A stretch of 57,398 nt of DNA from Prorocentrum cordatum. Taxonomy: Eukaryota. Under the pieces are notes generated by a model. That model saw only the letters and a program-made list of their open reading frames with translations, was not told the DNA's origin and searched no databases. Positions within the stretch are counted from its first letter, which is position 1. Every line of letters starts with the position of its first letter. Positions 18,690 through 49,237 of this stretch are shown here, one piece after another. The translations under genes were made by a program, and so were the position numbers. The DNA lies in assembly GCA_963575745.1 (NCBI GenBank), contig CAUYUJ010000031.1:62001-119398 (forward strand), read 5' to 3'.

Positions 18690-18730
<41 letters not shown>

Positions 18731-19215: not shown

Positions 19216-19236
19216 CCGTAGCCATTTTGGCTCAAG
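19216..19236 (+). other. Genomic relic of the dinoflagellate spliced leader (21-nt core)
   Basis: Exact CCGTAGCCATTTTGGCTCAAG. The DinoSL consensus is DCCGTAGCCATTTTGGCTCAAG. No GT donor follows, so this is not an SL RNA gene. Confidence 0.95.
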
Positions 19237-20970
19237 CCTGCCTTGGGCGCCAGACAGGAGGCGTGTGTGCGTCTCTCTCAAGCCCCGTCATCTCGGCGGG
19301 CGCAGAGAGCGGCTCTCCCATCCCCCTGCCTCCGTGTCGCGGCCCCTGCGATGGAGGCGGCGTGCGACGACAGCAAGATTGGGCTCGGGGGGCTGCCCGA
19401 TGCTTGGCGGCCCGGCATGCGCCGCGCCCAGGAAGAGATCTCCTTGGGCCCGACGGCGGTGCGGTGAGCGGCCCGCCGCGGGCGTCAGCAGGCCTGTGAG
19501 GCCGCGCTGCGCGGTCTGGTGGCGGAGGCCGCCCTGCCTGGGTCGTGGCAGGGCCGTGAGCGGGCCGCCAGGCCCGCCGCGCGGCTGGCAGCGCCAGGCG
19601 TCGCAGAAATGCGGCCTGGCATGCTGCCGTGGCGCCAGCGGCAGGCTTTGCCCACGCCTGCGACGCCGCCATCTCGGCGGCGGCGAGCGGCCCCAGGCAG
19701 GGGGCCCCTGCCACATCCACCCCTCCGACAGCGCCGCGGCAGGTGGCGGCCACTGCGCCCGCCTAGCTGCGGAAGGAGGCGCCGCGATGGCCCGCGGGCT
19801 GGCTGGCGCAGGACAGCGCGGGGAAGGGGCAGGGCGAGGGCGACGAAGAGGATGAGGGCATAAAGGAGGCTTTCGAGTCGACAGACAAGGACTCCGCGCT
19901 CGCGGACCCCGTCCTAGTGAAGGAGGAGGCCTTTCGGCAGGGAGGCGAACGCGTTCGAGGAGCAGAGCTCCCGCGTGGCGGTGGCGATGGCGCCCTCGAG
20001 GACGAGGCGCGCGCCCCCAAAGGGGGGATGGGCGACGTCGAAGAGAGCGTCGACGAGACGGAGGGCGACCTCATGCCTGCCGCCTGGACCGCCATGGTGG
20101 CCGCTAGGGCGCCGAGGCGGGGATCGGCCCAGCCCTTCGCGCGGCGCCGTGCGGAGCTGGTCGAAGAGGCCATGGCGATCGCGCAGCGGATTCGCGCGCT
20201 CTTCTACGCCTGGTGGGAGGTCTGGCCGCGCGTCCGCGACGACGTGTGCCCGGCCGTGCCGTAAGCGCAGTGCGGCTTCGGCGACGACCTCGACGGCTCC
20301 TTCGGCGTGGGCGGGATGCAGCGGCCCTTCGAGCCGTTGGGCGCGCGCCCGCCGCCGCCGCTGCCGCCGCCTCCCCCCTCCGGCTTCGCCCGTGGCAGTG
20401 GCCGCCGCGAGTTCACGGCGGCCGAGTGGCAGGTGTTGAACGAGCTGGAGGAGAGCTCCCGCAGGGTGCTCCGCGGAAACAACAAGTACGATGACACATG
20501 GAGATAGCAGCAGAGTGCCAGCTGCGTGGATGGCCTCATGGTCGTCTGGACAGCAAGAGTGCCAGCTGCGCGGATGGCCTCGCAATCGATTGTCTGAGCC
20601 TTGCCTGCGGTCGCCGTCGCTGTTAGCAGTCGGCGCCGTGTTAGGAGTCGTGCTGCGCTCCTAAGGGGCTGTGCAAGGTTCTGGTTATGCCCCCCCCTCG
20701 GGGCCAGGGGCTGAAGGGGCCCGCCCGTGGGGCCCGGGGCTGGATGGGGCCGCGGAAGGCGTTCGATCCTTGCCTCGGGGCGCGGGGGGGGTGCAGCCTC
20801 AGCGCGGCAGCTCGGTGGAGGCAGGCTGCGCCTCCGAGTCGGCTCGGCAGGCGGCCGTTCGAGAGCCTTGTAGAGGCTCGGCAGGCGGCGAGCTCGAGAG
20901 CCCCGCGCAGGCCGCGGCTGCGGCGAGGCGCGGACTCCCCGCAGCGACAGGGCACCGAAAGCACCGGAAA
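19216..20970 (+). pseudogene. Decayed SL-headed retroposed insert of unknown product
   Basis: Begins with the SL. Contains broken protein-like frames (ATG 19351 MEAACDDSK...; 19917-20507 with an in-frame TAA at 20262-20264). Ends at GGAAA, after which the CA microsatellite resumes. Confidence 0.6.
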
Positions 20971-22840
20971 CACACGCACACATGCACACACACACGCGCA
21001 CACACACACGCACGCACAAACGCACACACACGCACGCGCACACGCGCGCGCGCACGCGCACGCACACGCACGCGCACGCGCGCACGCGCGCACGCGCGCA
21101 CGCGCGCGCACGCGCACGCGCACACGCACGCGCGCACGCACACGCACACGCGCACGCACACGCACACGCACACGCACGCGCACGCGCGCACGCACACGCA
21201 CACGCACGCGCACGCGCATACGCGCACGCACAAGCACACGCACAAGCACACGCACACGCACACGCACACGCACACGCGCACGCACGCGCGCGCGCACGCG
21301 CGCACGCACACGCACACGCACACGCACACGCACACGCACACGCACACGCACACGCACACGCACACGCACACGCACACGCACACGCACACGCACACGCACA
21401 CGCACACGCACACGCACACGCACACGCACACGCACACGCACACGCACACGCACACGCACACGCACACGCACACGCACACGCACACGCACACGCACACGCA
21501 CACGCACACGCACACGCACACGCACACGCACACGCACACGCACACGCACACGCACACGCACACGCACACGCACACGCACACGCACACGACGCACACGCAC
21601 ACGCACACGCACACGCACGCCCACGCACACGCACACGCACACGCACAGGCACACGCGCACGCACGCGCACGCGCACGCGCACGCGCACGCGCACTCACGC
21701 ACGCACGCGCATCGCACGCGCACGCGCACGCGCACGCGCACGCGCACGCGCACGCGCACGCGCACGCGCACGCGCACGCGCACGCGCACGCGCACGCGCA
21801 CGCGCACGCGCACGCGCACGCGCACGCGCACGCGCACGCGCACGCGCACGCGCTCGCGCACGCGCACGCGCACGCGCACACGCACACGCACACGCACACG
21901 CACACGCACACGCACACGCACACGCACACGCACACGCACACGCACACGCACACGCACACGCACACGCACACGCACACGCACAAGCACACGCACACGCACA
22001 CGCACACGCACACGCACACGCACACGCACACGCACACGCACGCGCACGCGCACGCGCACGCGCACGCGCACGCGCACGCGCACGCACGCGCACGCACACG
22101 CACACGCACACGCACACGGGCACGCGCACGCACACACGCACACGCGCACGCACGCGCGCACCCCACCGCACATGCACACGCACACGCGCACGCAAGCGCA
22201 CTCGCACGCACACGCGCACGCGCACGCGTACGCGCACGCACACGCGCACGCGCACGCACACGCACGTTCACGCGCACGGGCACGCGCACACGCGCACCCA
22301 CACGCACACGCACACGCACACGCACACGCACACGCACACGCACACGCACACGCACACGCACACGCACACGCACGCGCACGCGCACGCGCACGCGCACGCG
22401 CACGCGCACGCGCACGCGCACGCGCACGCGCACGCGCACCCGCACCCGCACACGCGCACACGCGCACACGCGCACACGAGCACACGCGCACACGCGCACA
22501 CGCGCACACGCGCACACGCGCACACACGCACACGCGCACACGCGCACACGCACGCGCACACGCACACGCACACGCACACGCGCATGCGCACGCGCACGCG
22601 CACGCGCACGCGCACGCGCACGCGCACGCGCACGCGCACGCGCACACGCACACGCGCACGCGCACTCGCGCACGCGCACGCGCACGCGCACGCACACGCA
22701 CACGCACACGCGCACGCGCACGCGCACGCACACGCACACGCACACGCACACGCACACGCACACGCACACGCACACGCACGCGCTGACGCTCACGCCCACG
22801 CTCACGCACACACGCAATCCCACGCACACACACACACACC
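20971..22840. repeat. Compound (CACACG)n/(CACGCG)n microsatellite, right block
   Basis: Directly visible, including a pure (CACACG)n stretch at about 21305-21588. Confidence 0.97.
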
Positions 22841-25127: not shown

Positions 25128-25974
25128 GGAGGATGAGGAGGAGGGGAAAGGAGGATGAAGAGGAGGAGGAGGAGGAGGAGGAGGAGGAGGAGGAGGAGGA
25201 GGAGGAATAGGAGGAGGAGGAGTGGGAGGAGGAGCAGGAGGAGGAGGAGGAGGAGGAGAGGAGGAGGAGGAGGAGGAGGAGGAGGAGGAGCAGAGGATGA
25301 ATGGGAGGAGGAGGAGGAGGAGGAGGAGGAGGAGGAGGAGGAGGGAGGAGGAGGAGGAGGAGGAGGAGGAGGAGGAGGAGAGGATAGGAGGAGGAGAGGG
25401 GAGGAGGAGCAGGGAGGAGGAGAGGAGGAGGAGGAGGAGGAGGAGGAGAGGAGGAGGAGGAGAGGAGAATGGGGGGAGGAGGAGGAGGAGGAGGACGGGA
25501 GGAGGAGGAGGAGGAGGAGGAGGAGGAGGAGGTAGGAGGAGGAGGAGGAGGAGGAGGAGGAGGCGGAGGAGTCGGAGGAATAGGAGGAGGAGGAGGGGGG
25601 AGGAGGAGCAGGAGGGGAGGAGAGGAGGAGGAGGAGGAGGAGGAGGAGGAGGAGGCAGAGGATGAATGGGAGGAGGAGGAGGAGGAGGAGGAGGAGGAGG
25701 AGGAGGAGGAGGAGGAGGAGGAGGAGGAGGAGGAGGAGGAGAGGAGGAGGAGGAGGGGAGGAGGAGGAGGAGGAGAGGAGGAGGAGGAGGAAATAGGAGG
25801 AGGAGGAGGGGGAGGAGGAGCAGGAGGAGGAGGAGGAGGAGGAGGAGGAGGAGGAGGAGGAGGAGGAGGAGGCAGAGGATGAATGGGGAGGAGGAGGAGG
25901 AGGAGGAGGGAGGAGGGAGGAGGAGGAGGAGGAGGAGGAGGAGGAGGAGGAGGAGGAGGAGGAGGCGGAGGCGG
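25128..25974. repeat. ~850-bp degenerate (GGA)n array abutting the 3' end of the minus-strand LINE
   Basis: Directly visible; the interruption GCAGAGGATGAATGGG recurs near 25290, 25655 and 25872. Confidence 0.95.
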
Positions 25975-26090
25975 TACGGCCAGACCGAACGAGTGCGCAG
26001 AGCGACAGAGAGGGGAGAAAGAGAAAGACAAAGGCCGAGGGCGCGCAACCCGACGATTAGACGGAGGACAGCCCGAGGCGCAGCCTCAGG

Positions 26091-29000
26091 CTACCGCAGA
26101 CGAAGCCAAAAGCAGGCATCGTCTGTGGGGAAGAGGGGGCGGGGCTCGCCCCGCCACTCGCCCGAAAGGGGATCTTTACCCGCCTCAAGGCGCTTTAAAT
26201 ATGTGGCGTCCTTGCTGGATGCAAAACCCTCACACTGGCCCCACAAACGGGAACGAGGGGCCGACGGCTGGGCCCTGGCGCCGCAGCGGTGGCAGAATGC
26301 AAGGGTCTCGCCAGCAAGACTAATATGATGCCCTCTAGCACTACAGGGCCCCACAGGGCCATGAGCGGGGAGAGGGACCTCAGGGCGGGCGGCATCACGC
26401 GCAACCCAGGAAGGCGCACCAGGACCTCCAGAGGTCCGAGGGCGCTTGCAGGGCGGGGGCCCCACAAGCACGCCAGAGCCCGCAGGCCCGACAACGCCAG
26501 ACACGGAGGGCGACGCCCCCGTCCGAGGCGCCTTCGGACGCGGGCCCTCCAGGGGCCCACCCGCCCTGCGGTCCCTCACCGTCCTGGCAGGAGCGGGGGG
26601 GGGTGGCGGAGGGGGGGGCTCATGCGGGGCCAGGGAGCGTGCCTCTTTGGCGCGCCGACACGCCTCCCCCAGCTCAGCATCCAACTGATCCTCACCCCCA
26701 CCATCCACCTGAAACCTCACCCGCTTAAAGGCCAGGGACCGCTCAAGACCCTCGGTCGCGATGGGCGGCGACCTCTCTGGTCCACTTGAGGCTTCGACGC
26801 TTCGAAGCTCCAAGGAAGGGCGAGCCTCAGAGGGGGGGCCCGAGACGCTCCCGCTCGGCCCGCCAGGGCCCTTCGGCCCAGCAAGGGCCGCAGTCGAGGA
26901 AGGCTCAGGCGAAACACCCTCGAGGCCCCAGAGGGCCGCCGCCTCCGCGACCCTACAAAGACCCTTCCTAAGCCTCGCAGCACCTTTCGGCGTAACCGCG
27001 TAAGCGGAGCAACGATCACAACTGTACTTCTTACCCCTCAACCTCACTCGATGCAGGAGCTGAGGAGGGCAGGCCTGCCCGCCTGCGGGTGAACCCGCAC
27101 CGCGGCGCCCGCGCCCAGCGCCGCTGCCTGCAGCGCCAGCCGCGGTCAGCTGCGCCCAGCGGCCGCGCAGCTCCATGTCGCGCCTCAGTGGGACGTCCAC
27201 GCGGTCGGGTGCCACGGTGCATTCGAAAATCATCCTGGACGAGTTTGCAATCCAGGTCGCGACCGATCTGAGCGTGCAGAGCGAGTCGGTGTAGCTCTTG
27301 ACAATGGCCTGGGGAAGGTCGTGCAGCTGCCGACCCCTCTTAGCCGCTTGATCTGCCAGATCGTTGCAGCGGCGATGCCATGAGTCCTCCCTGGAGTGGC
27401 CCTTGACGTACGAAAACCGAATCGGACTCTCCAGGTCTCCAGACATGGAAAAAACCACCATGGTCCTCCAACTGGTGAAATAGGCGACGCCAAAGATCCA
27501 CATTCTCACGCCTCGGATTTAGACACCAGCGCTTGCCACGCGCCAGCCCCTCAAGCAAAGGCATGTCGTCCGTGAAGATATGGGGCGGGGCCACACCGAC
27601 GGACAGCACCTGAATCACTGCGAACAACTCACCACGAGCGGACGTCTGGCGATGGCCAGGCAGCGGCCCAAATACCGCTCCGTGGTAACAAGCATCCCCA
27701 ACAACCACGAAGCCCCAGCCCGCACGGTCAGCAGCGTCCCAGTGGAGCAACTTCCTGCACGACCCGTCAGTGAACACCGAGCCCGTGACGACAAAATGTC
27801 CATGGGCCCGAGTTCCACGATCATAACACCAAACACCTGAGTCGTTCCTGGGCGGCAAGGCAGGAAGAAAGGAGTTGGGGTAAAGCCCACGCGAGTAGAG
27901 CAAATCACCAGGTGGTGCCCTCCTTGCCGCGTCCAGGGTGGCCTCCGACACCGCATGCTCCCGAATGCCGTCAAACACGCGGCATTGCCAATACCTGTGG
28001 TGGGCGGTACCTTCGACACCAGGACAGTTCCTGCATTCAGGGCAGTGAGCGTAAGCGTGTCGGTGCAAGCGCTTCTGCGTGAAATGGCCACCCACGACCG
28101 CAGTGCGTAACGCAGCCCGAGCCAGCGGATCCAATGCCCAACGCTTGGCCTTGGGACCAGGGCAAAGCAACGCACGTATGGGACTCAACCATGCACCAGC
28201 GGGGTCCTTGTGAGACGGGCCATCAAGTTCAGGCATCACCTCAGGCCTGGCAGCCCATTGGTACCAGCCTACGATCTCATAGTCCTTGAGCGCCAGCCAC
28301 TTGACCCCTGACGGGGCCACCTCGCGTAAGTCCATAGTAATACCAGCACGAGTACGGACTCGAAACGCTGAGGAGACTGTCCAGCCCAAGAAAATCACAG
28401 GCCGCGCAAAAGCACCAGCTGGGCCAGCCACTAGCTTCCAGCTCTCCTGCCAGTCAACCGAGGCCACCTTCCAGTATTGAGAGCGCCATGCCGTCTGCAG
28501 CGTAAAATGGTCAACATCCCCCGACTGAATCAACAAAGCCCAGTTGAAAACAGGTCCAACAATGGCCAAAGTCGCTGGTTGAGACTCAAAGCCCCCTTCC
28601 AACCTCGATGCAATCCAGTGCGACGCCCCTGAGGGAATGGCTTGCCAGCCCAGCTTCGCCAGGGAAGTCGCGCGCTTGATCAGGTGCGGCCCGGCGCCCA
28701 GAATGCCCAAGCCGTAGGTAATAGCGGGGCCAGCTGCTGCTTTGGGAACCTGTCTGAACTTCGCTCCAAGGTGGCTCAGCCTCTTGAAGTGCCTTGCCCG
28801 CTTCAATACGCGCCCGACGCGACCCCGAAGCACTCGGGCACGAGCGCTCTTGCCAGCGGCCGCCTCGAGGCCCAAGACCTGCAACCAGGGCCTGGCCTGA
28901 AAACCGTATCTCCGCAGAAGACGAGCCGCAGCGGGGGCTGCGGAGTCATCAGACGCGGCGAGGAAAGCCTTTGACTTCGCCACGGGGGGGCCGAGATCCT

Positions 29001-31600
29001 GCAGGGTGTCACAGAGCAAAGCCACCGCATCGGTGGCGATCCTGCACGCATCCGTCCGTCTGGCCACCACTTGCAGAGTTAAATCGTCAGCGAAGATGTC
29101 CAACGAGAAAGAAAAACCCATCTGAGCAGGAATGCCGAGACCGACCGTGCTGACGAAATCATCCATTGACGCGAGCATCAGTAGCTGCGCAAAAGCCATG
29201 GCAAACTTGCACCCTGGAAGGACGCCCTGAGACACCGTAACGGCATATGACGAAGCCTGCTGCTACACGAGTCTGCGAGGCGCACGATACATGCTCAGCG
29301 CACAAGAAAGCAGCTGACGCGGAAATGCGTGCTTGGCCGCCGCCGAGATAAGCCTCCGCCAACAAATGCGGTCGAAGCACTTCTCGACATCAACAATGGC
29401 CGTCACGACACCTTGCTCCACCGCCAGTGCAGCTTCAGCCCTCACCAGGGCCCGCGAGGCCACGTCCAGAGTGGTCTTGCCAGAGGCCAGGGCGAAAAAC
29501 GGCCTGTCGTGCTCCAGCAGCCAGACCCGCAGCTGCCTGCTGCGGACCTGCGACCACACACGGTAAGTCGCCTGCAAGAGCGCGATGGGCCGCCATCCAC
29601 CTTTGGGCTTCGCCAAGAGCACAATGTGGACGGCGGCCAGCTGCGTGGGCCAACGCTCCCAGTGCTCCGCCAGCCAGAGCACATAGATGAGCAGTGAGAG
29701 GGTCTCGTCCGCGAGCAGGCTGAGGGAGCGAGGCGCCAGCCGGTCAGCACCTTGCCCAGTGTGCCACTTGAAGGACTTTGCCGCCGCGCGCAGTTGGCCA
29801 ATCTTGGGCACAGGCAGAGAAGCGCGCGGCAGGCGTCGAATATCATCAAAGAGCTGCGCCGTGTCAGGGAAATCCGCGAGGTGCCTCACCGCATATTCAT
29901 CGGGTCCAGCAGCAGCCCCATGCACCTGATCACGGGTGGGGATCACTGACGCAGAGCGTGCATTCCAAATGCGAGACCAACCATCCATTTGATCATCCGC
30001 AACATCCTGAGCCAAGGTAGATGGCTTCGCATGCCGAACCCCTTGGGAATGCCGAACACCAGACGGCTTCGTGAAGCTGAACAGCGGCTTGATGCGAGAC
30101 TCACGACAGTTGGCGGCCCACCGTGCGAACTCTCGCCTGCGCTCGGCCATCGCCGCCTGCTCCAGGTCGTCAGCGAAAGAGCGAAGCCAACCAATGACAA
30201 AATAGACCGACTCCATCAGCAGGCGCTGAATGCCAGGGAGATCACCTCCCATGAGACCAGTAGTGGGCAACCCAACGTGGTCTCCTGACTGCAACAGGGC
30301 CGCTCGACCCAGCAGCACCTGGAAAGCGTCGGGGGACGCCTCCACGACCTCCCGTGCCAGCGGCAAGATGCCCCGCAGCGTGGCCACCACGTGCTGGCAC
30401 TCAAGCGAGCGAAAAGACCTTTCGGCGCCCAGAGAGACGAGTCTGTCCAAGCGCCGAAGTAAATCCAAGGGCTGCAGCCTTGCACGTAGCGCATCGTCAG
30501 CAGCTTGGGCCAGGCGCCGAGCACGCCGAGCGTCAGGAGGGGCGGCAGGTCTCGCAGCTGCTGGCGCTCCTCCAGCTTGGCGCCACCTGTGGGCCACCTT
30601 ATCAGCACGACCGCAGTAGCGAGGAGCGTCGCTCGCAGGGACACCATAACGCACCAGCAACTCCTCCTCCACGATGTTCATAAACTCAGCGTACAGGTGG
30701 TCCAGCCGCGCCTGAGCCTGAACAGGAGTCGCATCACCTCCAAGTACCGCATCCTCCTCGATGAGTTCGCGGGTGCGATCCGCCAGCACAGGCGTGACGT
30801 CCTCGGTCGGGGCCGCCTTCGGAAAAGCCTTCGGCGCCCGCAGGACGAGGAACTTGACCGCCTTGGCCCGCGCGTCGAGGGACGTCACCATCGGGAAATG
30901 CGGCGATGCAGGCCGTCCGTCCACAGGCACAGGCTGCGCCAGCGAGCTCGCAATGGACAAGCTGGCCAGCCAGTAGTCAATGGTCGAGTAGGCACCCTGG
31001 GCGCTGCGGCACGTGCCCACAGGGAGCTGCCTTGCAGGAGCAGGGGGCCTCGCGACCACTGCAGCAGGGATGAAGTCTAAGAAACCACACTCCCCAATAT
31101 GCTTCGGATCACAGTTGAAATCGCCCGCCATCAGAAACGGCCTGTTCCAACCCCGCAGCGTTGTAGCGATGTCATAGAGCCTCATCGCATTCACGTCGCT
31201 CCATCGCCCAACTTCAAAGTAGCATGACAACAGCACAAGACCACCTCTGATACCAAAATCCGCATGACACGCCACACAGAAACTCGGAATCAGGTCAAAG
31301 CCTTTCAACCCAGGCAGCTCCGTCACGCTGATGTGACGCCGAACGAAGAGACCCACTCCAGCAGAAGGCCGCCCCGACTCCAGACGTCGGCACGATGAAA
31401 TAATAGCATGCCACCCCGGTCGAGCCGCCCAGCCTTCAGCACGCCGACGGTCGTCACCATCGATGCGCAGCTCCTGAGCCGCCACAACCTGGATGCCAGG
31501 ATCGCAGTGGGCCAAAAACTCCCTGCACGAAGTCCAGGAAGAACCGTTGCATGTGACGAAGGAGGCCTGTACACGGGCGCGGCCTCGACGCCCACGGCAT
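26091..31600 (-). pseudogene. LINE-A ORF2: AP endonuclease, reverse transcriptase, CCHC-like finger, RNase H and C-terminal extension; one in-frame TAG (29263-29265) and a frameshift near 27450
   Basis: APE: FVTCNG, VAAQELR, SAGVG, MAGDFN, TIDYWL, SPHFP. RT: LLAKPKGGWRPIALL, VDVEKCFD, QGVLPGC, IFADD. CRNC..HHRYWQC. RNase H: VFTDGS, QTSARGEL, IFTD, VKGH, NDLADQAAK. ORFs 29263..32646 and 27340..29235 are in the same frame. Confidence 0.9.
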
Positions 31601-32566
31601 CTAGCCTTCCATGTCGGCCTCGCCTGCGTCTTCCCAGGCGGCAGCGGCGGTTCCCCCGCCTGCGCGAAACGCGTATGCAGCTCCTGGCGGCAGCGCGGCC
31701 GCGGGGGGAGCTGCGGCTGCAGGCGAGGAGCCTGCTGGGGGTCCTGCTCCAACGGCGGCGGGGGCAGCTGCGGCTCCTGGGGGCGTGAGGGCCGAGGCGG
31801 CAGGGAACGCTGTGCCAAGCGCTGCAACCTGCTGCCCGATCGCCTCCAGGACATGGATGCCCTGGCCGCTGGCGACGCGCGCGGGGGCAGTGGCGAGCGT
31901 GGACTGAAGGCCGACCAGCGTGGAGGCGAGGGCTGCCAAGTCCACGCCGCTGGAGCTCGCCGCCGAGGCCGCCGCGGCCTGCTGAGCAGCCTGGACCTCG
32001 ACCTCCAGGTTCTTGACCTCCGAGTCGGCCACGCCCTGCTGCCTGCGGAGGTCGTCGACCTTCGCAAGGGCCACCGCGAGGTCGTCCGCCAGCTGGGAGG
32101 CCCGAGCACGTGCCTTTCCCACGCGCTGCTGGAGGGAGACCAGGAGCTGCTCGGGAGGCTGAGCACGGCGCTCCTCCGCCTCCAGGGCGGCGAGCTCCTG
32201 TCGAGCTGCCTGGACGAGCGGGTGCTCCTCGGCGTAGCCGAGCTTCTGAAGAGCGGCCAACCCTTGCCTGGCGCGCACGACTGCGGGCCCAGCAGGTTCT
32301 CCATGAGCAGCGCCATCTGGAGGACCACCACGAGCACGAGGGGGGGGGCCAGAGCGGCGGCGGCGGCCCGCGGAGGTCGACCTCGCGCCCTGCTCCGAGG
32401 AGGCGGGCGACTCACGGACCGTGCGCCCAAGGCGGTCTCTGCCGCACTTCCAGCACGTGTCACGGCTGGGGAAGTTGTTGCGGAACCCGCAGAGCCTCGA
32501 TGCCGCACATGGCCAGTTCTGCTGCTGGGGCGGGGCGGCACCTTGCTTGGGCAACTGCTGGGCCAT
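31601..32566 (-). CDS. LINE-A ORF1 (321 aa): N-terminal RanBP2-type zinc finger, coiled coil and Ala/Pro-rich tail
   Basis: ATG at 32566. WPCAASRLCGFRNNFPSRDTCWKC approximates W-x-C-x(2-5)-C-x3-N-x(6-7)-C-x2-C. Heptad-like segment LVSLQQRV...VEVQAAQQ. Lies directly upstream of ORF2. Confidence 0.8.
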   Translation of the reverse strand: MAQQLPKQGAAPPQQQNWPCAASRLCGFRNNFPSRDTCWKCGRDRLGRTVRESPASSEQGARSTSAGRRRRSGPPPRARGGPPDGAAHGEPAGPAVVRARQGLAALQKLGYAEEHPLVQAARQELAALEAEERRAQPPEQLLVSLQQRVGKARARASQLADDLAVALAKVDDLRRQQGVADSEVKNLEVEVQAAQQAAAASAASSSGVDLAALASTLVGLQSTLATAPARVASGQGIHVLEAIGQQVAALGTAFPAASALTPPGAAAAPAAVGAGPPAGSSPAAAAPPAAALPPGAAYAFRAGGGTAAAAWEDAGEADMEG

Positions 32567-33745: not shown

Positions 33746-33839
33746 GACCGTGTCTGATGCAGTTTTTGTTGTTGGCACTCGCGCCCCCCGACAACGTGAA
33801 CAACCCAGAAAACAAAACCAAGATATACCCGCGGTGTGC

Positions 33840-33861
33840 TCCGTAGCCATTTTGGCTCAAG
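33840..33861 (+). other. Genomic relic of the dinoflagellate spliced leader (full 22 nt)
   Basis: Exact TCCGTAGCCATTTTGGCTCAAG; the first T is shared with the end of the target-site duplication. Confidence 0.97.
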
Positions 33862-35995: not shown

Positions 35996-37707
35996 GACCG
36001 CATATAAAAAATGAGGACGCCGCATGTCTTGGAACGGGTCCTGAGGGAAACGGGTCCTAAGGTTTTTCGCTATTGTCGGCCCCCCTCGTGGCCTCCCACA
36101 GGCCCCAGGACCGTCCGAGAACGAGTCAGGATGAAGAGCTGGTCCTGGGGGAAGGCCCCAGGGTCCAGGAGCCGTTTCCTTCGGGACCCGCTTCCCCCGT
36201 GGAATAAAAGGGGCCCTCAGGGTGCCCCCAAAGGGGCACGAGATGTGCACGTCTCTTCGCCACCTTCACCCAGACATCCGCTTATAGGATTGCGAAGGCC
36301 TTACGGCCGGTGCCGCCGACCCTGAATGGCGACGACGACGACGACGACGACGAGCGCTCTTGGGGGCCTCTTGGGGGTAGTTTGTGGGCCTCTTGGGAAG
36401 CTCTTAGGGGCCGCTTGGAAGCCTCGTGGGGGCCTCTTGGGGCTTCCTGGGGGTCTCTTGGAGGGGGCCAGGATTCTTTTAAGTCCGCGGCTCCAGAGGT
36501 CCCGACCACTTCTCCAGAGGGTGTTTTGCATGGTCCCAGATCCACTTCGGATGGTCCCCGGGCCCGATCACGGGCCCTGCAGGCCAAACTCCAGCAAAAA
36601 CCGCCGGATTGAAAGAACATCACATCCTCGCTGCGTGTGGCTTCATGGGGAGCCGATACGTGGAGGGGAAGAAAGGTGCACTTCTCGGGCCCGAAAGGCC
36701 CCCTTCTGTTCCTGTAGGGCCCCATCTGGGGCCCTACGGGGCCTCTTTTCTGCAGCCCTCGCTGCGCCGAGCTTGCAGTGACCGAGGTACAAGATCAAGG
36801 TCGGTTCGGGGAGGATATCCTAATGTTCTTCGTGTTTGTTGGATGTTCCTGAGCATCCTGGGGGGTACCCTCGGATGGTATGTGTGTTTTGGCCGACAGA
36901 GGGTCCCATGTTCTTGGATGATGTCCGACTGCATCGCCCTTCTATCTGAGCGACACAGAAAAACGGCGTCGCCTGCGCCGACACTGGCGCGTGAGCTGCC
37001 CGCGTAAGGTCGCGCGTAAGCGCCTTCGCTTCCGATGTGGCGTGGCGCGCCAGCGGCCCGCCTAAGCCGCCGCGTCAGGTCGCCGTGTCATCTCACGAAG
37101 GACCGTTTTTGATCGTCGCTCAGGTGGGGGGGGGGCAGCGAGGGGCACAGAAAAGGAGCCCTGCAGGGCCCCTGCTGGGGCCCTTTCGGGCCCCCAAGGG
37201 GGCCTTCAGGGCCCGAAAAGGACACCTTTCCTCCCGCGCGCGCGGAGCCACAGGTCCGCTACGACACGCGTCCGCGGATAGAGAAAATCAGCGCCATGGT
37301 AAGGGATGGGAGGGAGGGGTAGGACGTCAGATATGACGCGAGCGCACCTAGTTTGCCTCCCCCCCTCCCTCCACCGCCCCCCCAGCAATCCGCCCCGCGC
37401 CCACAAGACCGCGGCATGTAAAGCAAGCAAAAAACACCTGCCCTCGGACCTCTGGGCCCGTCGTCGCAGGAGCACGGTGCCCGTCTCGGGCCGGGAAGGC
37501 CCCCTGCTGGGGGGGCCCCTTGAGGCCTCCTTGACTGCAGACCTCGCGCACCCCCCCCACCCAGATCATCGACCCCCCACGTTTTTACCTAACAGCGAAG
37601 ACTGATAGGTTTCTAGTAGGGTCAAAAGAGAGCATCATGACGCGCCAGGGGGGTCTGGGCGCGATCCGGGGGAGTGCCGGGGACTTTTTTTTTAGCCAAC
37701 AGTTACA

Positions 37708-40490: not shown

Positions 40491-40620
40491 CGGCGCTCCG
40501 CGCAGATTTCTTGGATCCGCGCTGGGCCCCCCGCGGCGCCTCTGGTGTCGCCCCTGGCGCGCTCCGCGCGCCAAGGAGGAAGGGGCCAGCGCGGATCCAA
40601 GAAATCCGCGCAGAGCGCCA
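40491..40620. mobile_element. GC-rich foldback/MITE family (related copies ~2455-2545, 6862-6985, 33372-33490, partial ~7778-7830)
   Basis: ATTTCTTGGATCCGCGCTGG / CCAGCGCGGATCCAAGAAAT inverted repeat around a GGCGCC..GGCGCCGCCC core that the other copies share. Confidence 0.65.
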
Positions 40621-42485
40621 ACAGTTTATGTATTCCAGATTTTGTAATAAAGGGAGGGGGGTCTCATTTCGGGGGGGGGTCTCTTCCAGGCTATCTTGGA
40701 GGGCCTGGGGGGTCTGGGGACTATGTTTTGGAGGGTTCTCCCACGGGGGAGGTCTGAAATGGCTTGTCTTGGAGGGTCCAGACCCCCTCCCTTTTATTAC
40801 GAAATCTGGAGTATATGCAATGTTCTCTTGCTCTAATCCTGGATCGTCCTGCGGAGGAAAAAAAGAAAACATGCACGAGATCGGAAAACTGCACGGGGGA
40901 GGGACGTCCGAGCGATGGCGAGACGAGGATAAGCCCGTTCCAGAGCGTTCCGCAACGCTCGGAGCGCTCCGGACATCTTTGAGAAGGCCGCGGCGCCCGA
41001 GACGTCCTCTGGAGACGCCGGATCTAAGGGATTCTCGATTTCGCCTCGCCCGATTTGATCCTCGTCTTGACTTCGTCCTGCACTGCGCGGTCGAGCCCGG
41101 CGCGCAGCACGGTGGAGCGCAGGGCCGTTGCCAGACATGCTCGCGCCGTGACAACAGAAAATCGGGACGGGAGGTTTTCGGACGTTTTCGTCGGTTCTCG
41201 ACGGCTTTCCAGCCTCGGGATGCTCTGCAGCAGTTGCGCCTCGCCGAGGGCGTTCCGGGGGTGCCCGGATCGCCCCGAACGACCGCCGGAGAGCCGAGTT
41301 ATGGGTTCTAAAAACAGGCATGCTCGCGTCGTGAGACAATCAGGATGTGATGGGGGTTCACAGTGTTCGGCCTCTCGGGGTCCTCGCCAGGCCCCAGGAT
41401 AGTAAAGCATTTTTTGAAGGCGAAATACCGGCCTTAGGGAAAAGGTGGGCCGCGTCCCCTGAAGTCCCGATCTTCTCCCTGGGGCAACTATTTTTGGGGT
41501 TTCTGTGGTTTGCACGGCATGCTTCTAAAGCTTTTTTGATCGAGGCCGTCTTGTTGGAACCCACCGTGTTCTGAGGACAATGCGCTTGTTGTTAGAGCAT
41601 CTCGCTTGTCCTAAGAACATGTCGTGGTAGGCCCATAGGAATGCCCAGACGGTCGGTCCCTGCTGAACACACGGGGTTCAAGTAGAGGGTGTTGAAGGAT
41701 CTCGTCGCATCGACGATGCGGCTCGATGTGTAGCAGCGTTGGTGCTGTCAGTGGCGTTTGCCGCGCCGTGGGTGTCGCTTAGGCCTCACCTGGTTTCACT
41801 CTGGGCTCCACCCTGATTGGTGTACCCGTAGGGATTGGCGCTTGCTGCAGCTCCTGAATCCAGGGTCCTTAGTCGCGGCCCCCCCCCGTGGCAACTGCTG
41901 GGGAGATGGTGCCGGTGTTGCATGTCAGGGTGGAATGTAGCTTGGCATAGCTGATCTCGAATGTCTGCGCAATTTCATCAGCTCGCTCCTGAGCCAAGGC
42001 TGGTTATAGCGGTATTGTTGGTAATTGGGCTCGAGCTAAACGGTGTTGTGATGATTTCGTGGACCGCGCTCGTTTTGATTTCGTTTCGCAGCAAAGGCAG
42101 AACGAAGACAGAACGAAGGACCATTATGACAACACGAGGACGAATAACACTGTTTATCTCGAGCCCTGGTTGGTAAACGGTCTCTAGGTCGTCAGGGGTG
42201 CTTTTAGACACGCTTGTCGTAGGCTGCGGCAGCCAAGTGTGCGCCCCCCCTGCTGGGCAGAGCAGTTGCGCAGGCCCGCCGTCGCCCGAGAAGGCTCCAT
42301 GGACAGGGGGATTTGCGGCCTGGTGGCTTGGGCTGCAGGGGTACACGATGGTGGCCAAATTTTCCACCACCACTACCATAAATGGGACGGAGAAGAAGGG
42401 AGGAGGGGAAGGTCCTCCTCCTCCTCTTCCTCCTGCTCCTCCTCCTCCCCCTCCTCCTTCTCCTCCTCCTCCTCCTCCTCCTCCT

Positions 42486-42507
42486 TCCGTAGCCATTTTG
42501 GCTCAAG
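42486..42507 (+). other. Genomic relic of the dinoflagellate spliced leader (full 22 nt) at the 5' end of a LINE
   Basis: Exact TCCGTAGCCATTTTGGCTCAAG immediately after (CCT)n at 42413-42485. Confidence 0.97.
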
Positions 42508-42626
42508 GGTGGTCTGCGCTACCCGCTCGGCCTGGCTCCCCCCGACCCGCTCCTCGGGTCTTCCTGCTCCCTCTCCCTCGGGCCGGGCGCGCCCGGGTGC
42601 TCCTCGTGCCTCTCCCCGCTCTCGCC

Positions 42627-43669
42627 ATGGCTGAGGTCGCCGGTGTGGCAGCAGCTGTGAACGGCCTGCCTGCCCTGCCTGGGCTGCCTCCTGCTCCTGC
42701 CCCCTTGGGGGCCGTGGGGGAGGGCGCGCCTCCGCCCAGTGACTTGACGATGATAGTGAAAGAGGGCTTTTCCTCTCACAAAGCAGAGGTTGAGTTGTTT
42801 CGACAGCAGATGACAGTGATGGGCACCAACTTCGATCGAATGCAGGAGGAGTTCGCGGAGATGAATCGTCGCTCGGAGGCTCGCTGGGCAGAGATTAAGA
42901 AATCACAGGATGCAGCGATCCACCAGGTCTCGGTTGACACAGATGCGAAGTTGGCGGCAGTTGTGGCAAAGATCGACGTTCAGTTGCAAGAGCTCCAGCA
43001 GAAACTCTCAGCAGGTTCGTCGACTCGTGCCGATTCGGAGTTCGAGCTCGTAGGAGGTGATGGGGAAGGAGGGCGGCGTACGAGGTTGAGGACGTTGGGC
43101 CCTGACCAAGCCAGTGCTACTCGTCTCATCGTTCTAGGTTTCGAGAAGCCCCTGCTGGAAGCGTCCCTCAAGGAAGCGGTCGCCCCGATAGTCGCTGCGT
43201 GTAGTCCAGCTAGCTGGTGAGGGACCGATCGTTCGAGCATGCTCCCTCACGCGGAAGGTGATCCTTGACTTCCCCAGTACTCTGTCGTGCACGGCGTTCT
43301 TCGGTAAGAGCCAGACCATCGGTAAGATTGTGTACTAGAACCCGATTGATAACCAGGGCTGGGAGCTTCGCGTGCGTCGTGACTTGCCCCCCCGCTAGCC
43401 GTCAGTTGTTCTACTACCAGGGACAGATTCGTGCGATCATCGGGAAGGTCTTGGGGGAGAAAGGGTTCCAGGTGGGCAGCAACGGACTCGGTGGTCAGAT
43501 ATACGGTCTCATCACGGCTACCCACCCAGTGATTCTGGCGAAGGTCACGGTCCTTGAGTGCGGTCGCCCCGAACTCGTTCTGATCCCTGAGGCCCTCGGA
43601 ACGTTCGGAGTTAGTGAGCACGCAGTATGCATTGTCACCCTTTTTGATCAGATTCGGCCCTTTGTGTGA
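42627..43669 (+). pseudogene. LINE-B ORF1 (coiled coil plus possible RRM-like half), with about two frameshifts near 43215 and 43340
   Basis: GCCATGG start at 42627; coiled coil NFDRMQEEFAEMNRRSE...VQLQELQQKL; RLIVLGF motif. Protein-like continuation GEGPIVRACSLTRKVILDF, then the 43265..43669 frame. Confidence 0.7.
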
Positions 43670-46600
43670 GGGCCCCAGTTGTCCTGGAGTCCCCCGCCTC
43701 GGGATTGCTAGTGCCCTGCCTGGCCTTTCTTGTCGGGTCCCTGGTGGTTCGGGCCCTCCCTGGGATGGTGGGCCTGTCGGGGGAAACCATCGGACCCGTG
43801 TGACGAATTGCCAGGATAGTGCTCAGCCAGCCAACCAGTGTTTTAATCTGAATTCAGGAGGACCTTATACCCCTGGTGACCCGTCCTCAGGAGCGAACGG
43901 GGTGTTTGCTTCCTCTTCTGCGCTTACCTTGTGCTCTTGGAATGCACGTGCTCTCTTCTCATCGTGCTCTACTTCGTCTCCGCTGGCAGCTCGGCGTTGC
44001 ACGCAGATGTATGGTCTTGTTGGCAGGTTTGACGCGGTGTGTTTACAGGAGACTCATGGCACGGTATCTGATGTGGAGATGTTACAGCGTGATGAACGTT
44101 GTCGTAGTGCAAGCGTTCACCATTCGATGATCGATCCGAGGGCTGGGGGCGGGGTGGTTACTGTCATATCGAGTAAGCTGGCTTCGCAGTTCGAATCGAT
44201 CACGCCGTTTCCGTTGATTGCTGGCCGTGTTCTCGCCTCGCACCTGAAGGGACGTTGTGGGGACCTAGTGATTGTTAATGTGCACATGCCGAATACTTCT
44301 GATCCAGTTGCGATGTATCGCAGGTACCTGTGTGTGATTCAGGCTTTCCTTCCATTGGCTGCACACACCATGTGCTTGATTGCTGGGGATTGGAACTTTA
44401 TGGAGGTGGAGGAGGGGCGGTTTCGGACTGACGGCACGTGGTTAGCAGGGGACAGGGAACATACGGATGCTTTTCAGTCTATTTGTGGGTCCTGGGCTGA
44501 GCTGTACCAACCAGATCCGACACGGCGTGATGTGTTCCAGGGAGAGGTCCGTGGGGTTGCCCGTCTGGACCGCATCTACACCTCTCTCTCGGCCCCTGTC
44601 TTGAATGATTTGGCGGTGACGGTAAATACCCTGGGGCATGCCGTGAAGACCTTCGCCTCGTCTGACCACATCCCAGTTGTGGCCACTGTCGCTCTGAGGA
44701 TGCCATCTGCATTACCCACCCATATTCCTAAGTGGATTTCCCAACATGGAGCTTACCATGAGTTGTGTACCAGCGCCATTATGGAAATCGGCCAGGATCT
44801 GACCCCTCGGGAGAAACTGGCTCGGGTGAAGGAGATTTTCTGGCAGATGGTCCCGCTGTTCAAGGCTCGGCTTCGGTCGAAGCCCCCGAAAGAGAATTGT
44901 GAAAAGCTCAATTTTGCTATGATGGCCTTTGTATTTTTTTTTTTTTTTTCTTTTTGATGTTTTTGCTCTTTTTATTTTTTTTTTTTCATTTTTTTTTTTT
45001 TTTTTTTTTTTTTGTTTTTTTTTTCTTTTTTTTTTTTTTTTTATTCTTTTTTTTTTCCTTTTTTTTTTATTTTTTCTCATTGTTTTATTTTTTTGTCTTG
45101 TTTTGGTATTTTTTTTTTTGTACTTTTTTTTTTGTTTTTTTTTTATTTATTATTGTTTTGTTCTTTTTTTTTTCTTTTTATTTTTTTTCTTTTTTTTTTT
45201 TCTTTTTTGTTTTCTATTTTTTCTTTATTTTTTCTTTTTTTTTTGTTTTTTTTATTTTTTCTCTTTTTTTTAATTTATTTTTTATTATTATGTTTTTTTT
45301 TCCTTCTATGATGGCTTTCCGTGGGTGGCGTATAGGCAGGTTCGACCGGTGTGTGCGTGCGATCCGTGCGTATCCTCGGTTGCTTCAGTACTTTGATCCA
45401 GACCGTGAGAGATGCTGGGATATAGTTGGCCTGGGTGCTTGAGTGCAGTCTCTGAAGGATGCTTGGTATGAGTCGGAGGAACGGGCGATGGACGGGTGGG
45501 AGGATGACGAGAAGTCTAAGGCTAAGGCCATGGCCCGCTTGCAACACCTTCGTCGTGCTTGGTCAAAGATGCGACGGCGTTGCGGGCTCTCTGGGGTCCT
45601 GGACAGTTCTGGGCAGGTTTGCCCTTCTCCGGCGGCCTTTGCTGAGGCCCTTCGGGACCATTGGCAGGTTGTCTTTGCCGCCAAGGAACCTGATCGGACC
45701 TTTGGCCTGAAATCCTCGCTCATGCCCGGCCGATCCAGTTGGACCCACTACATTGGAAGTTGGAAGTCGATGGTTTTATTGAGCGAGCCCGATTTAAGCA
45801 TCACTCTGCCCCCGGGGAGGATGGCATTCCATATGGATGCTGGAACGCTGAGGGGGCCGCTGATGTTTTATTCGGCGTTTATGATGAGATGTACCAAGCG
45901 TCGGGGGGTACTGTTTCGGCGTGCATGCGTCGAGGAAGGATGTGTTTCCTGTCCAAAGACCTCAAAGACGACGAGAACCCCGCAGTCCTTTTTCGGTCGC
46001 CTGATAAGACTCGCCCTCTCACGCTTGCGAATACCGATGCGAAGCTCCTGAGTGACGCCTTCTCCATTGGCCTCCAGAGGGCTGCACCGACAGTGATTGA
46101 TCCGATCCAGCGGGGGGGGGGGGGTCCCGCGTCGTGGGCTCCTTGACAACGTGGTTGAGATTGAATGGTGGGGTGTTCGTCAGAGGCTTACTGGTGGGGA
46201 CCGCTCGGGCATTCTTTTCACGGACTTTAAGGCTGCGTTCCCCTCTCTGATCGTCTCCTGGATCTTGGCGGTCTTGGAGGCCATGGGTGTTCCTGGTGAA
46301 GTTTGTGGTTTCTATCGCGAGTTGTACCGTGACAATGTGGCTGTAATCCACTTCGCGGGGACAGCTGGTGTTACTTTTTCGGTGGAGCGTGGGGTGCGGC
46401 AAGGTGATCCTGCTTCGATGCTCCTCTTCGCTTATGCGTTAGACCCAGTATTGCGTTGGATGAGGGCCAAGCTCACTGACCATGTCCCTCGGATTAGAGC
46501 ATGCGCCGATGACCTCTCTTTCTGCCTCCCCGACATCCTGACTGACCTCCAGCCGACGCTCTCGCTCCTCCGTAAGTTGGAACATTCTGTGGGACTGGGG

Positions 46601-47915
46601 CTGAACATTCCCAAATGTAAGGTCCTGGTGATTGGCTCGCTTGATCCTGAGAGATTAGTTGCCCACCTTCGTTCCAAGGGGAGTGAGTACTACCGCACTG
46701 TGTTTGTTCGCGTGGTTCTTTACTTGGGGTTCTGGCTGGGGCCTGGGGCTCTGGACAAAGTATGGAGCAACGCCATCCCCAAGTTCTGGATGACGGTTCG
46801 AAGGCTTCGTGGGCTTGGGCTTGGGCTTCCACAGACCATTCGCCTTTTCCACTCACACTGCATGTCGATTCTGGCGTACCAGTTACAACTCTGTCCAGTG
46901 ACCAAGGCGCTCCGTAAAGCGTATAATGAGGCCTTACAGGTGATTACTGCTGGTCCCCGCCATGCCTTCTCGAGGGAGATGCTGACGGGCTTGCGTGCGT
47001 TGGGAACCTCTCTAGAATGCTTGGATATCGATTGCTTTTCCAAAGCCATCAAGTTTCGGGTGGTTATGTCGTGCTCCAGCATCGATGCTATCCAGTATGA
47101 GATGGAGTCGTTGACGGTTTCCCTGGACGACGATGATTTCATTCCCGCTCGACTGTCATGGCCCTGGTGGAAGTCTTCCTGGATCAGGACTGCGGTGACT
47201 GAAGTAGGCAACTTCACGGTCCCGTCTCTGGAACCTATTCCCAAGAAGTCCTTTCAGAAGAAAGCCATGCGCAAGCTCCGAGGGCTCCGTGACCCCACTG
47301 TTCCCCTCCGCACCATGGTTCAGAGGGTGTCCAAGTGGGTGGGTCCCGACCGTTTTTCGGTAGCTGACTTTCAGGTGCTTGCCCAGAGGATGCGTAAAGT
47401 TGAGAAGGACAGCACGATGCACCTTGTCACGGGGGTCCTTAGAGTTCTCTGCCGTGGGGTCTGTACCTCCAGCCGGCTGCGTACCACGGTGGAAGGATGT
47501 GCGTTTGGGTGTCCTCTGGAAGCGGCTGACGACGACCGGAGGCATGATCGCGTGTGCCCAAAGTTGAAGGCTGGGTTGATTGACATATTCCCCCGTGGAG
47601 GACTCCTGAGGTCTTGGACCGCGGCTCTAACAGGTGAGGATTGGCTCCTCGCTCTTTGCTGTCTGGGGCCACAGTGGGGGAGGTCACGTGACCTAGCGGG
47701 GCGTGCCCTTATTAGATTTCGTTCTGGCCGCGCATAATGCTCGCAGGACCGGCTCGGTCCAGCCGGGGGAGTTTCTTATTAAAGCTAGGCTTCGGCAGCT
47801 GTCTCGTCGGCACCGCAAGCTTAATGAGGCGCTTCGGGCGCTGCGTCTGGCTGCTGCTGCTGCTGCCCCTCCCCCTGCTCCTCCTGCTCCTCCTGCCGTG
47901 CCCCCCCTCTCCTGA
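43614..47915 (+). pseudogene. LINE-B ORF2: AP endonuclease, reverse transcriptase and CCHC-like knuckle; disrupted by a T-rich insert, TGA 45440-45442 and frameshifts near 45730, 46120 and 47705
   Basis: APE: CSWNARAL, VCLQETH, VNVHMP, IAGDWN, ARLDRIY, SDHIPV. RT: SAPGEDG, RPLTLANTDAK, DFKAAFPS, GVRQGDPAS, CADD (normally YADD), YLG. Knuckle: CAFGC..HDRVC. Confidence 0.92.
44927..45305 (-). mobile_element. ~380-bp degenerate poly(A) insert (poly-T on the + strand) with a 10-bp target-site duplication
   Basis: CTATGATGGC at 44917-44926 and 45306-45315. Removing the insert and one copy restores the reading ...NFAMMAFRGWR... Confidence 0.8.
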
Positions 47916-49237
47916 GTTGCCGTGTCCCCCTTTTTGGTCCGCCCTTTTCCCTGTGGCCCCCTAGGTATTGGTCCATGCATGAAGCTGTTAGAGTGTGATG
48001 TGACCCTGGAGGGTCTCTCTGGTTGGCTGGCTGGTTTTCCGAGGTTTTTTCCTGATGATGTGCTTTCTCTGCGTTCTGTTACGTTTCTTGGTTAATTCAG
48101 GGCCCCGTGTTGTCGCCAGGGTTGTGGGCTCTGCCCAGTGCTCAGTGTGACCCTCTCTGCCGGCAGGTGAAGATGGAGAGGTGCAGCTAGAGAGAGTCCT
48201 CTCTCGCTGCGCCGCCGCCCCCCTGCTTTGGGGGGGTGCCTCTCTTGCCGCGCCGCCGCCCCCCCGCCTCTCTCCGCCGCCCGCCCCGCGGCCGCGCCGC
48301 CTCTCTCGCCTGCCCGCCTCTCTTGCTGTCTATGAGCTACAGGTTCTCGGGCGGGCGGAACGGTCTGGTTCGCTCGAGCGTCGATGGAGCGTCGCTCCTG
48401 TAGGGTAGGCAGGCCTTCCCGCGACGCCGAGCCGCGGCGCCTCCAGACACCCGTTGCGTCTGGCGCGGTGGAGGCCCCCCCCCCCTCTGCCGCGCCCCGC
48501 CGTCGCCCTCAGGTTCCCGACGAAGTTCGAGGCGCCCCCGCGGCCGCTCCGAGCGAGAGAGTGTCCCCTCTCGCCCTCAGGTTCCCGACGAAGTTCGAGG
48601 CACTTTGGAGGTCAGCTGTCTTGTTTCCCTTGTTCGGTGTGTTGGGGTCTCGTTTTTGGGGCGCGCCCCTTTTGTCTGCTCCTGCCTGCTGCTCTGTGGG
48701 TTGGGCCCTCGGTCAGCCGAGGAGTGAGTGTGGCATGGGAAGGATGCTCGAGTGTGTGAACCCCTTTTGGACGGTGTGCCGTGGGGGAGCGCGCGCCCGC
48801 CAGGGATCGAGTACACTCGGAGCAGAGTACCCGCCGCCGCTTCTCTTTGCCCTGCCCCTGCCGCTGCTCCTCCCCCGTCCTTTGCATGTATGATAGCACG
48901 GTGCCCAGTGCTCGTTGACATTCGGTGTGCGCGCTTGCGGTGGAAAAAAAAACTCCTCCTCCTCCTCCTCCTCCTCCTCCTCCTCCTCCTCCCCCTGCTC
49001 TCTCCTCCTCCTCCTCCTCCTCCTCTTCCATTGCGGCGCACGTAAATCGACTGGACGAAAGAGTGGCCGTTCGCCGGTGGTGCGGGCCCAATGGGGTCTC
49101 CCCGATCGTTGAACGCGAAGGAGTAGCAGCGGACTGCGCGGCCAGGTTTGGCCACCCCGCGTCCCCCGTCGAGTCGCGCGCCAAATATCAATCTTGCCTA
49201 GGTCACTCTTGCGCGTGACCGAGTAAGTAGGGATATA

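Follow-up and report, generated by a model that had tools for sequence, protein, structure and literature searches.

Spliced-leader-headed cDNA insertions in a Prorocentrum cordatum contig and their probable integration by a LINE-type mechanism

By which route do trans-spliced mRNAs return to dinoflagellate chromosomes, and which enzyme takes them there? The question is raised by a stretch of 57,398 nucleotides from Prorocentrum cordatum (GenBank assembly GCA_963575745.1, contig CAUYUJ010000031.1, positions 62,001 to 119,398 of the forward strand), hereafter the window, in which copies of the dinoflagellate spliced leader (DinoSL, here also SL) stand at the heads of three inserts. Recycling of mRNA in dinoflagellates, with retrogenes that carry DinoSL relics, was reportedly described by Slamovits and Keeling in 2008. 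According to passages of PMC5585692 and PMC11453091, more than 20% of the genes of dinoflagellates have been shaped by retroposition of SL-capped mRNAs. That enzymes of long interspersed nuclear elements (LINEs) lie behind it is a conjecture already in print, in portions of PMC5585692 and PMC10235124. Each SL relic of the window heads a full-length cDNA copy, and one of the three copies is itself a LINE. We consider it probable that three mature SL-capped mRNAs, two from host genes and one from a LINE encoding an apurinic endonuclease (APE) and a reverse transcriptase (RT), were copied to their 5′ ends and inserted by LINE-type target-primed reverse transcription (TPRT).

The window, dinoflagellate nuclear DNA whose best protein matches are to P. 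cordatum, is rich in microsatellites and has a GC content of about 60%. The exact 21-nt DinoSL, CCGTAGCCATTTTGGCTCAAG, occurs in it three times, always on the + strand (19216–19236, 33841–33861 and 42487–42507). The expected number of matches is 0.01, and three or more copies were reached in none of 100 dinucleotide-preserving shuffles. A search with the 15-nt core, allowing up to two mismatches across the window, found no additional copies. Relic 1 (19216–19236) matches at 21 of 21 bases and is preceded by C instead of the D of the 22-nt leader, relic 2 (33841–33861) is an exact match, and relic 3 (42486–42507) is complete at 22 nt, with the initial T. The bases directly 3′ of the three SLs are CC, TC and GG; since GT follows none of them, none of the three is an SL RNA gene. 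All three SL-headed inserts contain a contiguous, full-length coding sequence (CDS). Three exact relics on the + strand had been reported by an earlier inspection of the letters, the sequence-only reading, and are borne out here, each at the head of a retro-insert. The strand clustering seen by the same reading is not: the chance that three of three SL inserts fall on one strand is 1 in 4, and two other insertions lie on the − strand.

The clearest insertion scars belong to the second SL-headed insert, retrocopy 2 (33841–34632, + strand, 792 nt), a processed copy of a host transmembrane-protein mRNA. From SL to tail it is bounded exactly by a perfect 21-nt direct repeat, AAGATATACCCGCGGTGTGCT, whose left copy occupies 33820–33840 (its last T may instead be base 1 of the SL) and whose right copy occupies 34633–34653, both on the + strand. 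A 5′ untranslated region (UTR) of 75 nt precedes a 215-codon frame (CDS 33937–34587), and an A-rich tail of 11 nt, 9 of them A (34622–34632), lies between the 3′UTR and the right copy of the target-site duplication (TSD). The encoded protein has eight matches. The best two are from P. cordatum, with 94% identity (P0004, also present in MMETSP transcripts) and 84% identity, and align end to end without intron-sized gaps; the remaining ones are dinoflagellate transcripts, Alexandrium among them. The copy has decayed: at 34117 a TAG stands in frame in place of the E of its relatives, three residues are deleted and the C-terminus is altered. The pre-insertion site would place a bottom-strand nick after ...ATCTT. 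Retrocopy 2 is the sole retrocopy in unique DNA, and its 21-bp TSD, A-rich tail and deduced nick support TPRT. Of the host-type mRNA copy with tail and TSD that had been proposed at this place, the mRNA copy and the exact 21-bp duplication stand, whereas the 'tail' amounts to merely 11 nt.

The third relic heads LINE-B (42486–48952, + strand, 6467 nt). Behind the SL follow a 5′UTR of 119 nt (42508–42626), an ORF1-like frame (42627–43220), an APE domain (43935–44669), the RT (45694–47737, with the Pfam core at 46205–46705), a 3′UTR of 1.2 kb (47738–48943) and A9 (48944–48952). In a Pfam scan of ten pieces, families were found in two: Exo_endo_phos (PF03372, E = 2e-10) and, downstream on the same strand, RVT_1 (PF00078, E = 3.7e-9); none was found in the ORF1-like frame. 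The sequence-only reading was correct in placing a LINE with APE and RT under an SL relic, with the SL at the very start of the element. A self-comparison of the window detected no repeat pair within the LINE-B span, that is, no terminal repeats. The element is flanked by a single TCC-type microsatellite, annotated by Tandem Repeats Finder (TRF) as (TCC)n on the left (42413–42485) and (CTC)n, the other register, on the right (48953–49029). Because LINE-B sits in a microsatellite, its TSD and nick site are unreadable; a duplication could measure as much as about 24 nt. This copy is dead, its ORF2 being broken by a 389-nt insertion, by a TGA in frame and by two frameshifts. Its relatives are few: one cluster (72% identity) and two distant matches at similar protein length and, among longer proteins, 15 at 23–31% identity, mostly of about 1200–1280 aa and with APE and RT. 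A search of the ESM Atlas for a name or clade returned generic RT and zf-RVT clusters only. The A9 is one of just two A/T homopolymers of at least 8 nt in the window, the nested insertion described below excluded. The other, T9 at 37685–37693, lies beside a tandem repeat of 73 bp and an array of (GCTGAG)n; we rejected it as the tail of another − strand insertion, no flanking repeat having been found.

The 389-nt insertion in ORF2 is a retro-insertion in its own right. It consists of a 375-nt tract (44931–45305), A-rich on the − strand, in which 312 of 375 positions are T on the + strand (83%) and the longest T run is 25. The flanks (44917–44930 and 45306–45318) share CTATGATGGC exactly (10 nt) and, with one indel, three further bases (13 nt). 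Excision of 389 nt restores the ORF2 frame, and the nested insertion is younger than LINE-B. Read on the − strand, the A-rich tract adjoins the duplication with its 3′ end, and the implied nick follows ...GCTTT. What had been called a poly(A)-only insertion with a TSD thus keeps its duplication of 10–13 bp, but turns out to be an impure A-rich tract on the − strand instead of pure poly(A).

Insert 1 (19216–20970, + strand, 1755 nt, GC 0.73) begins with relic 1 and interrupts a single (CACACG)n array (17677–19215 on the left, 20970–22839 on the right). It had been listed as an unknown sequence, a label that no longer applies. In a phmmer search of 1.84 billion representative proteins (cut-off E ≤ 0.001), its frame, read past one TAA, matched four proteins, the best at 3.8e-25. 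Three of the four are 'unnamed' or 'uncharacterised' P. cordatum proteins of 462–571 aa, and the first protein cluster includes MMETSP transcripts; apart from PPR on one of them, no informative Pfam family was found on the four relatives. In tblastn, nucleotides 136–1289 of the insert span residues 1–462 of P0027/P0031 at 41–49% identity. The CDS (19351–20507) opens with an ATG 115 nt behind the SL and runs to a stop, followed by a 3′UTR of about 460 nt, and is broken by in-frame stops at 19465, 19764 and 20262 and by one frameshift between 19554 and 19635. Judged by these protein matches, insert 1 derives from a host-type mRNA of a P. cordatum family of 462 aa, copied at full length and since degraded. 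The TSD is unreadable because the flanks are microsatellite.

A second LINE of the window, LINE-A (approximately 25972–32837, − strand), has no SL within three mismatches. A stretch in its 5′UTR that matches the SL at 15 of 21 positions (32779, − strand) was dismissed as chance, as the window holds two matches with up to six mismatches and 20 simulations gave a mean of 1.05. In the Pfam scan of the window, which covered the 37 longest of 153 open reading frames (ORFs) of at least 120 aa, families were found in two ORFs, both belonging to LINE-A. These are APE at about 30952–31524 (4e-5) and RT from about 29314–29610 onward (2e-6), together with an RNase H at about 27526–27777 (2.6e-4) that fails the curated cut-off. 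A RanBP-type zinc finger can be seen at the N-terminus. With only two breaks in its ORFs, LINE-A is more intact than LINE-B, to which tblastx detected no kinship. It is enclosed by (TCC)n in its own sense, at 25128–25971 on the 3′ side and 32838–33021 on the 5′ side.

Is an SL-headed LINE peculiar to this locus? We searched two other contig collections, one of genome contigs and one of viral contigs, for the exact SL. Among the genome contigs, 20 stretches carry an exact SL and are dinoflagellate-like contaminants of bacterial metagenome-assembled genomes (MAGs). One of these, L139, when extended to its whole contig L155 (G001:C12; 9096 nt, GC 0.70), reads from left to right as (AG)n, SL at 117–137, ORF1, ORF2, a short 3′UTR, A6 and (GA)n. 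ORF1 measures 406 codons from stop to stop and has a RanBP zinc finger (1.6e-7); ORF2 is uninterrupted over 2536 codons and contains APE (5.1e-9) and RT (4.5e-11). The element is a distant relative of LINE-A (BLASTP 5e-12) without detectable kinship to LINE-B, and is apparently an intact SL-headed LINE of the LINE-A lineage. The arrangement of microsatellite, SL, full-length LINE, A6–9 and the same microsatellite is therefore found twice independently, in two LINE lineages, with one copy apparently intact. With L155 as an independent case on an unrelated contig, SL-headed LINEs are not the rare one-offs that would have counted against the sequence-only reading. A tblastn search of 23 LINE-type proteins against 138 SL-bearing loci (E ≤ 1e-6) recovered only the ORF of L139 itself, and few nuclear-like contigs extend more than 4 kb behind an SL. 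Protein-guided scans of the viral contigs found no RT relatives of LINE-B or the L155 element. Seven metagenome stretches match the 19-nt junction between SL and LINE-B; none of the seven continues into the rest of the SL or into LINE-like sequence, and we attribute these matches to chance. Two further GC-rich contigs in bacterial MAGs, L156 (G002:C59) and L157 (G005:C78), consist of single open frames of 1355 and 2369 codons with weak RT matches. Both are probably additional giant LINE ORFs of dinoflagellates; the frames are open at both ends and the 5′ ends are missing.

The inserts show that three complete SL-capped mRNAs, one of them from a LINE, were copied into DNA, each to its very 5′ end. 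In the mechanism proposed for this, integration would have proceeded by TPRT. The enzyme would be a LINE protein of the endonuclease type, serving the LINE mRNA in cis and the mRNAs of host genes in trans. Reverse transcription would start where a nick in the bottom strand exposes a ...TT-3′ end that pairs with poly(A). The duplications of retrocopy 2 (21 bp) and of the nested insertion (10–13 bp) start with AAG or AAAG on the sense strand, which implies bottom-strand nicks after CTT in the former and after TTT in the latter. Both fit endonuclease-initiated TPRT primed from a T-ended nick on poly(A). LINE mRNAs would obtain their 5′ ends from SL trans-splicing and not from an internal promoter, so that every full-length daughter would bear an SL relic. 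This relic may in turn supply AG acceptors, plus a TTTT promoter-like motif (PMC5585692), for the next round.

Several observations weigh against this mechanism. Only two duplications are readable, those of retrocopy 2 and the nested insertion, as insert 1, LINE-A and LINE-B lie in microsatellites, where neither TSD nor nick site can be defined. Tails are short or absent: at most AAA in insert 1, after which (CACACG)n resumes, 11 nt (9 A) in retrocopy 2, and none in LINE-A, which has a single (TCC)n microsatellite on both sides. Even at retrocopy 2, the flank 5′ of the left TSD copy is also A-rich and tail-like (about 11 of 14 columns by eye), and a longer imperfect duplication without a tail may be an alternative to a tail plus a 21-bp TSD. 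The bottom-strand primer at LINE-B would end in ...GGAG and be unable to pair with poly(A). The nested insertion is 17% non-A despite being younger than its host element, and a plain poly(A) tail therefore does not explain the tract. Among the four sequencing runs listed, two contain part of LINE-B (shares 0.20 and 0.06), with no RNA run among them. Finally, a dinoflagellate host for L155 is deduced from the presence of the SL, its sole basis.

The alternative that survives best, although we regard it as unlikely, takes the cDNAs from another RT, for instance that of Ty1/copia long terminal repeat (LTR) elements, favoured in a portion of PMC6050394, and lets them enter by recombination or by the repair of double-strand breaks, with a preference for fragile microsatellites. 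It would suit the distribution of the sites. Three of the four independent insertions into host DNA in the window (insert 1, LINE-A and LINE-B) fall within microsatellites, which, summed from TRF rows of period up to 6, account for about 20% of the sequence outside the inserts (about 8.4 kb out of about 41.5 kb). The rough binomial probability is 0.03, making a microsatellite preference of the insertions suggestive only. Of SL relic sites more widely, 6 of 17 adjoin a repeat of period up to 8. This set comprises the three relics of the window and 14 from other contigs, all with at least 30 nt upstream (seven sites with GT after the SL and two with a short flank were excluded). The six sites are window positions 19216 and 42487 and those in L155, L127, L130 and L141, and the repeat types are (CACACG)n, (TCC)n, (AG)n, (CGTGTG)n, (CAT)n and (GACA)n. 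We also considered whether polypyrimidine (CTC)n on the sense strand is selected as the acceptor tract for trans-splicing; we dropped the idea in view of the purine-rich sense-strand (AG)n of L155.

Entry by break repair would also account for the minimal tails of insert 1 and LINE-A, and both non-homologous recombination and in-situ retroposition are described in parts of PMC9651163 and PMC5585692. Moreover, L134, a contig of a bacterial MAG, carries on the − strand an SL (8001–8021) that stands alone between 19-nt direct repeats, TTTTGCTTGCAGGCGTGAG, of the gene's own 5′ end, with AG before the upstream copy. This looks like in-situ recombination between a cDNA and the gene it came from, at a point 19 nt past the trans-splice acceptor, which would be a route other than TPRT. 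On the other hand, the 21-bp TSD with A-rich tail of retrocopy 2 and the 10–13-bp TSD of the nested insertion are unlike the products of break repair or of an integrase, no LTR element or integrase was found among the 37 ORFs scanned, and the autonomous SL-headed elements are themselves APE-type LINEs. LINE-type TPRT is thus retained as the probable mechanism, and room is left for break-repair capture as a second route to the microsatellite-embedded insertions with minimal tails.

Less probable still is the narrower proposal of the sequence-only reading that LINE-B-type elements specifically drive gene retroposition here, which we consider improbable. LINE-B has APE and RT, resembles the retrocopies in its SL head and short A tail, and lies less than 9 kb from retrocopy 2. 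However, this copy is dead, and no second copy or fragment of it was found in the window. Its close relatives are few (one protein at 72% identity, the others at no more than 31%), and its microsatellite site is not comparable with the unique-sequence site of retrocopy 2. The more intact LINE-A resides in the same window, and the intact SL-headed LINE of L155 belongs to the LINE-A lineage, making LINE-A at least as good a candidate for the engine of the retrocopies. The further suggestion that reverse transcription reaches the cap unusually often reflects ascertainment, since the window was chosen for its SLs; the five retro-insertions recognised in it include three with an SL, one LINE without and one that is tail-only. 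The LINE interpretation is in this sense partly supported, being right in kind (LINE-type TPRT) and not in particulars: neither LINE-B as the engine, nor an unusual processivity, nor a clustering by strand is supported.

It is very improbable that LINE-B obtained its SL by a template switch to SL RNA or to another mRNA, by insertion beside or into an SL gene, or by chance, and not by trans-splicing. Human L1 is known to form chimeras by template switching (U6/L1), and trypanosomatids have LINEs specific to SL genes. In LINE-B, the exact 22-nt exon is joined to a complete 5′UTR and ORF1, with no SL-intron sequence on either side; fusion of the SL exon alone, without the SL RNA intron, counts against a template switch to SL RNA. 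The identical microsatellite to the left and right speaks against an SL gene as the insertion site, the same architecture recurs independently in L155, and the shuffles, none of which gave three copies, exclude a chance origin. An assembly artefact, in which reads from cDNA or transcripts became joined to genomic sequence at repeats, where assemblers err and where two of the three SL inserts meet their flanks, is scarcely credible, given that retrocopy 2 lies in unique DNA with a TSD and that stops or frameshifts in all three SL inserts and a nested insertion in LINE-B are not expected of fresh cDNA.

How does the locus compare with known systems? Dinoflagellate retrogenes with DinoSL relics resemble it in that a DNA-encoded DinoSL lies directly 5′ of intronless gene copies, which fits two of the three inserts. 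In the relevant parts of PMC5585692 and PMC7245778, relics are seen upstream of genes or in transcripts, without insertion boundaries; here, the boundaries are visible, one of them with a 21-bp TSD and an A-rich tail. Relics in transcripts are truncated and tandem, whereas the three of the window are single and complete. The terms 'target site' and 'direct repeat' do not occur in the text of PMC5585692, a portion of which gives the mediating protein as unknown and its enzymes as 'presumably' from LINEs. Another portion of that paper reports enrichment of the GO (Gene Ontology) term 'RNA-dependent DNA replication' among relic-bearing genes of Symbiodiniaceae, taken as a sign of high RT expression. 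The RT-encoding retrogenes of PMC5585692, as presented in those portions, imply SL-headed retroelements, with no anatomy, class or termini of such elements given there; here, two complete units of SL, LINE and tail are delimited. Opinions on the enzyme vary: parts of PMC12014239 name retrotransposons or retroviruses, a passage of PMC10235124 argues from proximity for LINE-mediated integration of viral genes, one in PMC9651163 cites non-homologous recombination, and one in PMC8045281 treats the LINEs of Suessiales as ancient remnants. Our literature search found no paper that links dinoflagellate retroposition to a 'target-primed' mechanism.

Processed pseudogenes made by mammalian L1 share several features with the insertions of the window, including a full-length mRNA copy with an A-rich 3′ end, a TSD of about 10–20 bp, target DNA rich in A on the sense strand and an APE- and RT-encoding LINE nearby. 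They differ in that here the tails measure 0–11 nt, three of five insertions lie in microsatellites, and a trans-spliced leader, in the place of cap-proximal genomic sequence, marks the 5′ end; also, the LINEs of the window are not assigned to the L1 clade. In trypanosomatids, SLACS, CZAR and CRE are LINEs specific to SL genes. Together with L1Tc (part of PMC1874656), they likewise occur in organisms in which all mRNAs are SL trans-spliced, and have LINE 5′ ends associated with SL sequence. However, the trypanosomatid elements either interrupt SL RNA genes or are transcribed, without splicing, from an internal promoter, whereas the inserted units described here include the entire SL exon and have a microsatellite as target. 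An interrupted gene of the SLACS/CZAR type was not found: the complete SL is on the 5′ side only and the same microsatellite lies on both flanks, (CTC)n in LINE-B and (AG)n in L155. Microsatellites are targeted by LINEs of the R1 clade and others, and LINE-A, LINE-B and the L155 element likewise each sit within one microsatellite (n = 3). The repeat type varies in our set, with (TCC)n twice and (AG)n once, as does strand composition relative to the element. The relevant part of PMC4640811 concerns the restriction-like endonuclease (RLE) class.

The window supplies a locus-level anatomy of the process: an SL-tagged gene copy with a LINE-type duplication, and two SL–LINE–tail units of different lineages, one of them, from L155, intact. 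The open question of the enzyme source becomes a simple census for any long-read dinoflagellate assembly. A broader scheme can be put forward tentatively, as a possibility that we hold with less confidence than the origin of the three inserts. Dinoflagellate LINEs may be promoter-less, with SL-capped, polyadenylated RNA as the intermediate and the SL renewing the acceptor. The same TPRT engine may make SL-tagged retrogenes, amounting to about one-fifth of genes, prefer microsatellite or A-rich targets and start at the very beginning of the poly(A). Such a cycle suggests how LINEs without promoters persist in genomes that are transcribed as long unidirectional arrays.

Two further observations on SL-bearing sites were made outside the window. 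L137 (− strand, SL at 2728, GC 0.37) contains a full SL followed by two truncated relics (CCATTTTGGCTCAAG twice), an array that is the classical signature of multi-round recycling. The second concerns viruses. On the contigs L008–L126, from giant-virus MAGs of IMG/VR (GC 0.15–0.37), the exact DinoSL occurs at 136 unique sites, 129 of which are in an AT-rich context. At 125 of these 129 sites, A stands at −1, giving the full 22-nt leader, and at 105 of 129, AAAATTGA, which we take to be a Mimiviridae early-promoter motif, lies within 60 nt upstream. An ATG lies within 200 nt at 127 sites, and at 101 of these the first ATG opens an ORF of at least 100 aa, compared with 9% at random positions. 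GC-rich, host-like sequence follows the SL at 35 of 129 sites. A literature search on DinoSL encoded by giant viruses found nothing. Pfam, applied to 60 of the 101 ORFs, identified DUF4116 repeat proteins (11), RING (3), CCCH (2) and ABC (1). It looks as though dinoflagellate giant viruses hard-code the host SL at many gene starts, have captured host cDNAs, or both.

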